Source: a virus
Taxonomy: Duplodnaviria; Caudoviricetes
Direction: 5' to 3' (one strand)
Virus record (IMG/VR): IMGVR_UViG_3300044960_000817
Coordinates: 1-50,210 of that record
DNA length: 50,210 bases
This document shows, piece after piece, positions 17,317 through 19,985 of the stretch. The notes below the pieces were generated by a model. The model was not told the origin of the DNA and ran no database searches. It was given only the letters and a program-made list of their open reading frames with translations. The position numbers and the translations under genes were made by a program. Each line of letters begins with the position of its first letter. Positions within the stretch are counted from its first letter, which is position 1.

Positions 17317-17469
17317 CTAGTCCGGCGCATACCCGAGGATGCGCCGCACCTCGCCCACGACCGCCGCCGCGCCGGCCGCGCCACCCTTGGGCATCCACTG
17401 GCCGCCCAGCGGATGGCCCTTGGGATAGCGCGGCTGGGACGGGCTATAGAACTGCCGCGAGGCGCTCAC
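17317..17469 (-). CDS. Uncalled 50-aa micro-protein with QPR...GGQW motif
   Basis: GTG overlaps the portal stop (GTGA), TAG 1 nt before the MuF ATG; MSASRQFYSPSQPRYPKGHPLGGQWMPKGG...GYAPD. Confidence 0.7.
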   Translation of the reverse strand: MSASRQFYSPSQPRYPKGHPLGGQWMPKGGAAGAAAVVGEVRRILGYAPD

Positions 17470-19985
17470 GCCGCTGCCTCGCTATCCCGGAAGTCAGCCG
17501 CCGGGGTGGCCGCGTACCAGAGGAACTTATCTTCGTGGTCGGGCGGCGGCTCGGCCGCTTGCCGGGCGGCCGGGGGCGGCGAGCCCATCCACAGGTCGGG
17601 CTGGCCCGGCCCATCGTCATGCTCGACCGTCAGGTGCCAGCGGCCCTGCCGATCCTTGCGCGCCTTGCGGATGTGGAACTTCGAGCGATTCATGAGCAGC
17701 ACCTCGTGCTCGGGCTGGTCGAGGAATTGCTGGAAGGTGTCCAGGTAGCCGGCGCGCGCGCCCGCGCGGATCTGGACCTCGACGAGGATGCCGTCCTCGC
17801 CGTGCCGGTCGGCGAATGCCTCGGCCACGCCGCGGTCGAGCGAGGTGCTGACGAAACCACGATCGCCGACGGTCATGCCCTCGGTGAGTTGGCCGCGCTC
17901 CAGCATCCGCACCACGGCCGCGCTGCCAATGCCCCGATAGGCGACCACGTCCTCCTCCATCCGGTGCCGGCCGATCGCCAATTGGATGATCTGTGCCTGG
18001 CGCAGGTGCTCGGGGCTGAGTGACGTGCGCGCGTCGCCGCGCCGGAGCGCCTCGTTGATCGGCTGATAGTCCTTATAGGCATAGCCGCCCAGCGCCGTCC
18101 GCGCCTCAACCGACAGGCTGTCGGCCCACTGGCCGAACTCGCTGGCGATCCACTCCTCGCGCTCGTCCTCCGGCACCGGCCGGCCCCGGAATTTCGGCTT
18201 GGCTTGGGTCGCCGGCGGCGTGGGCCGGGCCGGTGCCGCGCCGCCGGCCGTGTCGCGCCACTGGCCGCCCCGCGGGTGGCCCTCCGGGTAGCGTGGCTGA
18301 TTCGGGTCATAGAGCGCGACCGGCTCGGCAGTCTCGTCCTCGTCCTCGTTCGCCAAGAACGCGGCCTCATCGGGCAGGCCCTCGGCCCACCAGTCCTCGT
18401 CGGGCAGGCCCTCGGCCCACCAGTCCTCGTCGGCGAAGAGCCGGCGCGCGACCGCGTCGGCGACGGCCGCGACCAGCGCCCGCCGGCCGGCCGGGCTGGT
18501 TGGCTCGCTGGCCTGCCGCGGCGGCCGGTCCTGGTCGCCGTCGCCGTCGCCGTCGCCGTCGCCGTCGCCGTCGGCCGTCTCGGCCTGGTCCGGCGCGGCC
18601 GGCCCCGCCTGCGCCAACTGCTGCATCGCCTCCTGCTGGGCGCGCTGCTCCTCGGCGCGCGCGGCCAGCTCCTCGATCGACGGACTGGGCAGATCGAGCA
18701 GGTCGAGCAAGTGCTTGGTGATCTGGGCGTCCGGGAAGATCTCCATGCCGGCCTGGGACAGCTTGACGATGGCGTCGACCGTCTGGGCGACGTCGCGCGC
18801 CTCGATGTCGCCGAAGACCAGGCGCGGCAGTGTCTCCAGGTCATAGCCGTTGAGGCGCAGCAGGGTGGGGATGGCGCGCTCGTTGATGACGGCGGCGATC
18901 GAGTCCAGCCAGGCTCCCAGCGCCACCGCGAACAGGCTGGTCTTGTCGGAGGAGAGCGCGAACGAGCCGACCGCCTCCTGGCCGAGCTTGATGAAATCGG
19001 CCAGCAGCGTCTGGCAGATCAGGCGGCTATAGCGGGCGATGATCTTGTCGGTGTCGAACTGGCGCGCGCCGCCGGCGCTGAGCAATTCGAGCTTGTAGAG
19101 CGGCTGGCGGGTTTCTTCGTCGTAGACGAGCGGGAAGATGACGCCCTCCTGATCGTCACGACGGATATTGGTGACCAATTCCTTGATCTTGCTATAGATC
19201 GCCTTTTCCTCGGCGCTGGCGGTCTCGCTCATGATCTCCGGCGGCACGTACGCCACCGGCAGGCCGGCCAGGTCGCGCTCGACGCCGATCGCCTCGATCT
19301 GCTGGAGGTTCTTCTTGAAGTAATAGGGCGCGATGGCGTTGAGCAGGATGCTGCGGCCCTCGGGGTTGCCCTTGTGGCTGACGGTTCGGAATAGCAGGCC
19401 GCGCTCGATCGGCAGGTAGCGCGGCCGGAAATCGGGCGGCGGCGTCTGAGTCCAGCCGACGACGCGGTCCTCGTCGTCGATATCCCAGGCCAGCAGCGTC
19501 TCCTGGCCGCGCAGGTACCAGCCGCGCCAGCCGAGCTTGCCGTCGCGATACTTGCTGCGCCGGGTCGGGTCGGCCTGGTCGGGGCCGTCGCGGAATTTGA
19601 AGGCGACCTCCAGGTAGGCCCAGCCATACGGCAGCATGGTCAGAATCTCGGTCAGTATCTCCGGCCAGGTCAGCTCCATGTCATGCAGCGCCGACCAGAC
19701 CAGCGCAGCGCCCTCCTGGTCGCGCGCGGAGTCGCCGCCGGCCACGATCTGGATCGCGACGCGGCGCAGCAGTTGCGTGACCGCGAACTGCATCGCGCCG
19801 ACGTCGGGGTCGGTGTCCAGCATCTCCCGGATGATGTCCGGCAGGCGCTGGCCCATGAACTCGCGGATGCGCTGCTCGTGGATCGAGCCGCCGTAGTGAT
19901 GGAGGCCGGAGCGGCCGACGATCCGCAGGTCGGGCCGGCGGCCATTGGCGGGGGCGCTGGCGCTGGGCTGGCGCTGGGCGACCAT
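17466..19985 (-). CDS. Portal protein with C-terminal VIP2-like ADP-ribosyltransferase domain
   Basis: Portal motifs (GNPEGRSILL, EAIGVERDLAGLP, GSFALS); acidic linker; ART motifs INEALR, YRG (17931-17939), STS (17841-17849), EHE (17703-17711). Confidence 0.88.
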   Translation of the reverse strand: MVAQRQPSASAPANGRRPDLRIVGRSGLHHYGGSIHEQRIREFMGQRLPDIIREMLDTDPDVGAMQFAVTQLLRRVAIQIVAGGDSARDQEGAALVWSALHDMELTWPEILTEILTMLPYGWAYLEVAFKFRDGPDQADPTRRSKYRDGKLGWRGWYLRGQETLLAWDIDDEDRVVGWTQTPPPDFRPRYLPIERGLLFRTVSHKGNPEGRSILLNAIAPYYFKKNLQQIEAIGVERDLAGLPVAYVPPEIMSETASAEEKAIYSKIKELVTNIRRDDQEGVIFPLVYDEETRQPLYKLELLSAGGARQFDTDKIIARYSRLICQTLLADFIKLGQEAVGSFALSSDKTSLFAVALGAWLDSIAAVINERAIPTLLRLNGYDLETLPRLVFGDIEARDVAQTVDAIVKLSQAGMEIFPDAQITKHLLDLLDLPSPSIEELAARAEEQRAQQEAMQQLAQAGPAAPDQAETADGDGDGDGDGDGDQDRPPRQASEPTSPAGRRALVAAVADAVARRLFADEDWWAEGLPDEDWWAEGLPDEAAFLANEDEDETAEPVALYDPNQPRYPEGHPRGGQWRDTAGGAAPARPTPPATQAKPKFRGRPVPEDEREEWIASEFGQWADSLSVEARTALGGYAYKDYQPINEALRRGDARTSLSPEHLRQAQIIQLAIGRHRMEEDVVAYRGIGSAAVVRMLERGQLTEGMTVGDRGFVSTSLDRGVAEAFADRHGEDGILVEVQIRAGARAGYLDTFQQFLDQPEHEVLLMNRSKFHIRKARKDRQGRWHLTVEHDDGPGQPDLWMGSPPPAARQAAEPPPDHEDKFLWYAATPAADFRDSEAAA
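18365..18433. repeat. 30-bp tandem duplication (DEDWWAEGLP x2) in portal linker
   Basis: cgggcaggccctcggcccaccagtcctcgt repeated. Confidence 0.9.
18535..18573. repeat. Hexamer microsatellite (tcgccg)n encoding poly-DG
   Basis: About six perfect copies. Confidence 0.9.

Follow-up and report, generated by a model that had tools for sequence, protein, structure and literature searches.

The phage genome IMGVR_UViG_3300044960_000817 (the window, analysed over its full 50,210 bp) is complete, with direct terminal repeats and an estimated completeness of 100%, and its portal gene, at 17466..19985 on the minus strand, was found to run without interruption into an ADP-ribosyltransferase (ART). The 839-aa product, P0001, comprises a Mu-type portal core, a long acidic linker predicted to be disordered and a C-terminal domain that, by sequence and modelled fold, is an ART of the Vip2/C3 R-S-ExE type. 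These data show that portal and ART form a genuine gene fusion in a single frame. The explanation that we think is on balance the right one is that a protease cuts the linker, that up to 12 ARTs are thereby freed in the head and ejected with the DNA, and that the ART came to the portal as a cassette. All coordinates given below are on the minus strand unless stated otherwise.

The ART domain occupies aa 600-793 (17607..18188), as recognised by Pfam, sequence alignment, AlphaFold2 (AF2) and Foldseek. It matched ADPrib_exo_Tox (PF03496) at aa 610-780 (E 1.3e-21; 77.3 bits against a cut-off of 23.4) and the PHROGs ART family phrog_3895 (E 2.8e-11). A previous examination, made from the letters of the genome alone and called the sequence-only reading here, had listed the motifs Y..IN..LR, YRG, FVSTS and E-H-E, and all were found intact, as Y637..I643-N644..L647-R648, Y683-R684-G685, F711-V-S713-T-S715 and E759-H-E761. 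In the alignments, the R of R-S-E is R684 (codon 17934..17936), followed by S713-T714-S715 (17841..17849) and the ExE motif E759-H760-E761 (17703..17711). A phmmer alignment to Vip2 (1qs2; E 7.4e-11) paired YRG with YRW, STS with STS and EHE with EKE. Across 46 stand-alone relatives, N644 and S713 were invariant and Y635, R648, R684, E759 and E761 were at least 90% conserved; every one of these residues is present in P0001.

Structure prediction gave the same answer. The ART domain modelled alone with AF2, from the 46 stand-alone relatives, reached a predicted local distance difference test (pLDDT) score of 85.8 and a predicted template modelling (pTM) score of 0.78, and the full-length model was likewise confident for aa 600-790. 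Foldseek matched the ART model to Vip2 (6.5e-15), to C3bot1 (template modelling (TM) score on the target 0.78-0.81), to a Listeria ART effector (TM(target) 0.83), and further to Plx2A, CDTa, C2-I and iota-like enzymes, with a probability of 1.00 for Vip2, Certhrax, C3bot1 and 8za7_B (TM(target) 0.83). The Vip2-type identity that had been proposed is therefore one on which Pfam, the 1qs2 alignment and the AF2 and Foldseek fold check agree. With Vip2, C3, iota/CDTa/C2-I and Certhrax (PF03496), the domain shares the fold, the NAD-binding helix motif, the R, the S-T-S and the ExE; identity to these toxins is only 17-26% in the Foldseek rows, P0001 lacks the second (pseudo-ART) domain and the B-component of the binary toxins, and its context is a phage head whereas theirs is a secreted binary toxin. 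An ExE motif points to arginine as the acceptor, and the P0001 enzyme is, from its sequence, probably arginine-specific. Arginines are also what Bxa, an ART carried on a MuF protein, modifies, according to the accessible part of PMC11699363.

The portal core spans aa 19-460 (18606..19931) and was recognised by PF06074, phrog_113, solved PDB chains and AF2. Portal_Mu (PF06074) matched aa 50-419 (E 5.1e-26; 92.2 bits against a cut-off of 23.9), the portal family phrog_113 matched aa 19-511 (E 1.9e-74), and PDB portal chains, which at 479-522 aa are roughly 320-360 aa shorter than P0001, matched with E values from 3.9e-62 to 5.1e-13. The full-length AF2 model, a monomer built from a 55-row alignment, had a mean pLDDT of 74.2, with the last confident portal helices at 399-411, 420-429 and 437-458. 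Foldseek returned two classes of match for this model, portals and ARTs. The portals were those of Bas63 (9mt4; 9.1e-29), P7-1, Sf14, PhiTE, P23-45, G20c, JBD30 and Mu, the entries matched including 11bp, 9c39 and the Mu neck entries 9knu and 9khx; the probability was 1.00 for Bas63, P7-1 and Sf14, and the root-mean-square deviations were high (7-10 Å) because a monomer was modelled. The gene lies where a Mu-type portal is expected, between the large terminase and the MuF, protease and major head protein genes. Since the 50-kb record holds no second portal match, P0001 must be the working portal.

Between the two domains lies a linker of aa 461-599 (18189..18605), rich in A, P, D, G and E and predicted from AF2 and composition to be disordered (pLDDT below 50 for aa 461-497, 516-541, 543-564 and 571-596). 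A repeat scan located two tandem repeats in it: a hexamer, GTCGCC x7.5, at 18534..18579 (GD x6, aa 473-484), and a 30-nt unit, x2.3, at 18365..18433 (DEDWWAEGLP x2, from aa 519 and 529). The acidic repeat linker described from the letters alone is thus roughly 140 aa long, is indeed acidic, and contains two in-frame tandem repeats. Past the ART, AF2 predicts a disordered C-terminal tail (aa 794-839; 17469..17606), in which the stretches VEHD..P..PDLWMGS and DHEDKFLW are conserved and common to P0001 and P0123, its nearest ART relative.

The open reading frame (ORF) is stop-free from ATG 19985 to TGA 17468-17466, and the Shine-Dalgarno-like sequence GGAGGGAAG (19992..20000) is found 6 nt upstream of the ATG. 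From about codon 1 to the stop, the G+C content at third codon positions (GC3) is 0.80-1.00 in the P0001 frame, in portal, linker and ART alike. The frame also stays open upstream as far as GTG 20255; this alternative start was set aside given the lower GC3 of the 90 additional codons (only 0.50-0.78) and the presence of GGAGGGAAG before ATG 19985. Logan contigs of runs X1 and X2, which come from one sample that is a possible source of the record and so are not independent of it, match the record without a difference or a gap over 17400-18399, where they are 12.6-15.4 kb long, and over 18582-20100, where they are about 6 kb long. The ART, the delimiter motif in front of it and the linker to 18399 lie together on one 12.6-kb contig, and short unitigs chain on to 18522. 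The uninterrupted frame from portal through linker into ART claimed earlier, for which the coordinates given were exact, is borne out by the 839 stop-free codons, the continuous GC3 and the contigs without differences; no stop or frameshift between portal and ART was seen where contigs cover the gene, a check that does not extend to 18523-18581.

That uncovered interval bears on a possible artefact. A mis-assembly across the repeats would create the fusion spuriously, and the sequence is metagenomic only, no listed contig piece includes 18523-18581, and the contig graph is broken at both tandem repeats. What is left open is, however, only a pure hexamer repeat, across which GC3 is continuous, and the ART, motif copy 1 and the linker are physically joined on the contig and unitigs just described; four other proteins from public genomes and metagenomes share the architecture. 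Copy-number change in the linker repeats cannot break the frame, because both periods are multiples of 3. An ART that is a dead passenger, an inactive bulk on the tail of the portal, is hard to square with conserved catalytic positions that are all intact. We consider artefact or dead passenger very improbable. A minor variant, with an additional G behind 17556 at about 17% of the X1/X2 contig depth, would truncate P0001 to 819 aa, inside its disordered tail, and may be a strain variant or belong to a relative. Runs X5 and X7 contributed small shares, a few short pieces of 151-213 nt with 0-2 differences, and nothing was drawn from them.

We favor a model in which each of the 12 portal subunits would be made with a Vip2/C3-like ART on the acidic, disordered linker of roughly 140 aa. 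This linker would hang from the crown of the portal, the end turned towards the inside of the head. The prohead protease, a homologue of phage Mu protein I, would cut the linker during head maturation, as reported for Mu gp29, at a site expected within aa 414-600, and so free the ART inside the head. Up to 12 free ARTs would then be present in the head and ejected with the DNA, and would modify host proteins by ADP-ribosylation as infection begins, in the manner of T4 Alt and of what has been proposed for MuF-ART proteins (PMC9503650, PMC5576092). We infer the catalytic activity, head location, cleavage, ejection and target; that the portal acts as the carrier of the ART, as the sequence-only reading had it, is plausible by analogy.

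The precedent for cleavage is Mu gp29 (H). This portal is made up of crown, wing, stem and clip domains, the residues missing from its model follow the crown, and the virion structure lacks the final 124 residues, a loss that its authors put down to cleavage by protease I (accessible sections of PMC11915804). In a BLASTP comparison, aa 363-416 of P0001, the only segment that aligned, matched gp29 aa 336-391 with 44% identity, and residue 388 of gp29, the last one modelled, falls at about aa 413 of P0001. The two proteins share the family PF06074 and the same module (portal, MuF, protease I/scaffold, major head protein), and gp29 has an acidic C-terminal segment like the acidic linker of P0001; the part removed from gp29 differs in having no enzyme domain and no QPR..GGQW motif. 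Because the gp29 C-terminus is reportedly processed and a protease of the same family (PF10123) is encoded by this phage, a cut in the linker is expected.

By rules of thumb, a linker of at most 140 aa spans about 50 nm at most, and the 1290-aa tape measure protein of the phage implies a tail of roughly 190 nm. Delivery therefore needs linker cleavage, since a tethered ART cannot span the tail to reach a new host. This constraint also bears on a different account, raised as an alternative in the accessible part of PMC9503650, in which the ART stays tethered, is not delivered, and acts in the producing cell or the prohead on host or phage proteins in contact with the free or assembling portal; its targets could be immune sensors that respond to portal or terminase, or could be the machinery of packaging. 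A long flexible linker would suit an enzyme that sweeps its surroundings, and the cleavage site is only predicted. The reported processing of the gp29 C-terminus and the shared protease family argue instead for release, as does the placement, by relatives, of the same type of ART on MuF and giant polyvalent proteins thought to be ejected. We give permanent tethering little credence.

The candidate enzyme for ART release in the favored model is the 649-aa head protease/scaffold encoded at 11923..13872, an ORF in which GC3 is high from codon 1. Pfam and PHROGs place an N-terminal 2H/LigT phosphoesterase at aa 124-282 (PF13563, PF02834), followed by Mu-like_Pro (PF10123) at aa 343-532, and both H-x-T-x motifs of the 2H domain are present (HLTL at 152, HITL at 241). 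This arrangement suggests that the 2H domain is a second candidate head cargo. The accessible part of PMC9503650 proposes that 2H domains on MuF or portal proteins are packaged and degrade immune nucleotide signals. A relative of the portal, P0052, carries its 2H domain on the portal and not on the protease.

Direct portal-ART fusion turned out to be a recurrent minority architecture that involves several portal families and has about one quarter of the frequency of MuF-ART in our sample. An exhaustive search with the ART yielded 1514 representatives at a threshold of E<=0.001, of which 142 also passed E<=1e-10, and the 60 relatives of 400-1300 aa among the best 150 were scanned with Pfam. PF03496 was present in all 60, a MuF family in 18 (17 PF04233 and one PF06152) and a portal family in five (three Portal_Mu, one Phage_portal_3 and one Phage_portal); the members with PF06381 and PF04860 portals were counted in a pooled scan and may also hold MuF. 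Separate Pfam scans showed Portal_Mu and ART, with no MuF match, in each of P0176 (710 aa), P0255 (710 aa) and P0268 (784 aa); together with P0003 (948 aa), which came from the search for portal relatives, they make four further Mu-type portal-ART proteins without MuF, in answer to the survey of relatives that the sequence-only reading had proposed. A hidden Markov model built on close relatives of the portal picked out P0255 alone from the 150 ART matches, and the others were revealed by Pfam. Relatives of the ART also occur within proteins of 2000-7000 aa. A word-indexed homologue search with the ART region (aa 575-839) returned none at E<=0.001.

Several observations weigh against the model of a packaged, cleaved and ejected ART. 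The architecture is rare: among the best 120 of 1465 portal relatives at E<=0.001 (proteins of 461-1469 aa), only P0003 combines portal and ART. The IMG/VR search gave 206 portal relatives, from which 80 loci were kept, and none of the 77 portal genes with a stop inside the locus has an ART extension; 76 of these 77 end 6-82 aa past the position equivalent to aa 433, and the remaining one, L003, extends by 1365 aa. In GenBank (50,697 phage records), none of the 1328 records with a portal match covers at least 80% of P0001, and tblastn with the ART domain alone gave only six weak matches. By eye, the ExE motif is altered in two of the four other fusions (G-H-E in P0176 and C-D-E in P0003) and kept in P0255 and P0268, the second glutamate being kept in all four. 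The QPR..GGQW delimiter motif is absent from Mu gp29, the cleavage site in P0001 is a predicted one, and a folded domain of 20 kDa must be assumed, by analogy with T4 Alt, to pass the portal and the tail channel. Packaging, cleavage, activity and target are, for the ART of an uncultured phage, what we infer, and the hexamer repeat at 18523-18581 is covered by no listed contig piece from a sample that may itself be the source of the record.

Portals of this type carry other domains as well. Thirteen of the best 120 portal relatives exceed 560 aa, and the other Pfam domains on them include a PI3/4-kinase-like domain (P0015) and the 2H domain of P0052. Among them too, P0066 has a C-terminal Zeta-toxin-like domain (PF06414), and an intein-like LAGLIDADG insert (PF14528) splits the portal core of P0068. 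Of the IMG/VR portal relatives, the closest (L003:2668-7998; 47% identity) continues about 1365 aa past the portal core as a long, basic, repetitive extension with many 'TSHGG' units that ends in a PI3/PI4-kinase-like domain (PF00454; E 1.8e-06), a portal cargo far larger than the ART. In P0003, an extra module between portal and ART (aa ~480-720), preceded by 'HLPGQHDQKAHG', has YRG-like and E-containing motifs and resembles a second, degenerate ART, with no Pfam call.

How the ART might have reached the portal is suggested by a direct repeat. The largest such repeat within 16300-20300 is 85 nt long, with copies 863 nt apart that share 71% nucleotide identity (higher in an ungapped core) and are 57% identical at the protein level (E 1.5e-7). 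Copy 1 (18229..18313) closely precedes the ART and carries the codons of the delimiter motif, LYDPNQPRYPEGHPRGGQW (aa 558-576), and copy 2 (17366..17450), just past the portal-ART stop, encodes FYSPSQPRYPKGHPLGGQW...; the delimiter pattern is Y-x-P-x-QPR-x-P-x-G-x-P-x-GGQW. Copy 2 sits in a third reading frame, open there for 54 codons, within a 50-codon frame at 17317..17469 whose GTG at 17469 shares bases with the portal stop (GTGA) and whose stop at 17319-17317 ends 1 nt before the MuF ATG at 17315. Between 17480 and about 17340, GC3 is higher in this third frame (0.85-0.90) than in the others, and thereafter it is highest in the MuF frame. A homologue search with the 50-aa orphan peptide gave no match.

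The 85-nt repeat thus brackets the motif, the ART and the stop, and recombination between the copies would excise all three because both copies are read in the same codon register. Such an event would leave a portal of about 600 aa that ends immediately before MuF. The 50-codon frame looks like the original tail of the portal, pushed aside when recombination at the motif brought in the ART cassette, and the ART looks to have been acquired by recombination. Polymorphic toxin loci keep orphan C-termini in the same manner (compare PMC3482391, accessible in part). The nearest ART relative, P0123 (39% identity), shares the motif before the domain and the tail after it and is a different protein of 629 aa, which fits the cassette reading. 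No contig joint that skips about 863 nt, as expected from cassette loss, was seen in the Logan contigs. Motif variants of the form [QH]PR..G..[WF] precede 24 of 225 ART domain instances in the 150 relatives, with 72 matches overall in the 139,362 aa of these proteins. Since this enrichment is only about two-fold, the motif marks module boundaries in general, and we ruled it out as an ART-specific marker.

The delimiter repeat and the displaced orphan tail mirror polymorphic toxin loci, and one alternative is that P0001 works as the MuF toxins do, the packaged ART being a growth-arresting toxin directed against non-immune bacteria or steering the lysis/lysogeny decision, with an immunity gene that we did not recognise. 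MuF-ART Bxa is antibacterial, arginine-modifying and accompanied by two adjacent immunity genes (accessible part of PMC11699363), and here MuF and protease are separated by a 2.4-kb insert of small ORFs of unknown function on both strands. The gene directly downstream of the fusion is nonetheless MuF and not a small immunity gene, and no ADP-ribosylhydrolase (ARH), macrodomain or integrase family was found among the 32 ORFs scanned with Pfam or the nine further ORFs scanned with PHROGs only. MuF toxins, moreover, have been reported almost only from temperate phages (PMC5576092), and lysogeny would have to be assumed for the present phage. Its record is a free virus genome with terminal repeats, and it encodes helix-turn-helix regulators. 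We regard this alternative as unlikely.

More speculatively, the C-terminus of Mu-type portals could be an exchangeable site for cargo, organised on the lines of a polymorphic-toxin locus, in which the delimiter would mark cassette recombination, with the former tail left as an orphan, and might also mark protease release, and the head would contain a two-enzyme first-strike kit (12 ARTs via the portal and 2H via the protease/scaffold). We put this forward tentatively and rather doubt it in its full form. The repeat-flanked cassette and the varied portal cargo (ART, 2H, Zeta-toxin-like and PI3/4-kinase-like) suggest exchange by recombination, and such exchange would help to predict the counter-defence repertoires of phages from metagenomes.

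T4 Alt, a virion-packaged ART, is targeted by an N-terminal capsid-targeting sequence that is removed by gp21. It is injected with the DNA and modifies host RNA polymerase and other proteins, as described in accessible parts of PMC9503650 and PMC5512222. T4 Alt is a separate internal head protein and the P0001 ART is part of a portal; we liken the two by description. Examples of MuF-ART proteins are Bxa of the Bacteroides prophage PhiBxa (PMC11699363, accessible in part), EFV from a prophage of E. faecalis (cited in PMC5576092) and proteins of the Microbacterium phages Percival, Goodman and Johann (PMC7302621). As in P0001, a Vip2-type ART sits at the C-terminus of a head-internal morphogenesis protein in a terminase-portal-MuF module, and both packaging and delivery have been proposed. 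Unlike in these cases, the carrier is the portal, which is present in 12 copies and forms part of the DNA channel, and the adjoining MuF is bare; no ARH or inhibitor immunity gene was recognised in the scanned ORFs. A MuF polymorphic toxin has its toxin on MuF, whereas P0001 has no MuF match and the MuF no extension. Likewise, polyvalent proteins as defined in the accessible part of PMC5512222 have at least two effector domains, and P0001 has one effector and a structural portal.

The novelty of a portal-borne ART implied by the sequence-only reading was overstated, given the four other fusions and the statement in print that phage ARTs may be fused to portal proteins (accessible part of PMC9503650). 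The same source describes fusions of 2H and Nudix domains with MuF, portal or capsid peptidase, and PBECR, 2H and InPase fusions to portal proteins are given in PMC5512222, likewise accessible in part; packaging in the head and injection of portal-fused effectors are computational predictions in the accessible text of both. These accounts stress myoviruses and the present phage looks siphovirus-like, and their accessible parts do not mention a repeat-flanked cassette with an orphan tail. Our literature search found no experimental study of a portal-borne ART; experimental work turned up there for T4 Alt and a few MuF fusions only. What this case adds is the evidence for cassette acquisition and the second enzyme, 2H, on the head protease, the portal-ART fusion itself having already been noted. 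As a single instance of an architecture already in print, the case is useful rather than surprising. Injected virion proteins are the first move of a phage against its host, before any phage gene is expressed, and with the portal as carrier the dose is set to 12 molecules per virion and the cargo lies right beside the DNA exit channel. With dose and place fixed, it would make a clean system for the storage, release and ejection of folded enzymes.

The gene order of the head module is Mu-like: large terminase, portal-ART, MuF, the 2.4-kb insert, protease/scaffold, a cement or scaffold-like protein, and the major head protein. The large terminase subunit (20491..22086) is encoded directly upstream of the portal. 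The MuF minor head protein (P0002; 16401..17315) likely starts at ATG 17315 and not at GTG 17384, the start in the ORF list; the N-terminus was set by PHROG 3517, which matches from P0002 residue 33 at profile position 11. P0002 (327 aa) matches PF04233 at aa 158-315 and no other Pfam family, and so, as had been remarked before, this MuF has no C-terminal extension. The tail genes include those for the 1290-aa tape measure and a major tail protein, with no convincing sheath gene among them, and the phage therefore looks siphovirus-like.

The 2.4-kb block (13995-16400) has small ORFs on both strands and splits the Mu-like order of MuF and protease. Two or three of its ORFs are on the plus strand (14854-15291, 15540-15776 and about 15800-16173). 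No Pfam family was found for the small ORFs of the block, and an Atlas look-alike search gave no family for the 145-aa ORF at 14854-15291; the ORF at about 15800-16173 matches phrog_21731 and phrog_30542, both of unknown function. The block could be a moron, or a carrier of defence or immunity genes. Elsewhere, the phage encodes a ParB-like/N6_N4 DNA methyltransferase fusion beside the terminase genes (22700-23998), a sigma-70-family factor with regions 2 and 4 (32636-33334), an AAA ATPase and helix-turn-helix regulators.

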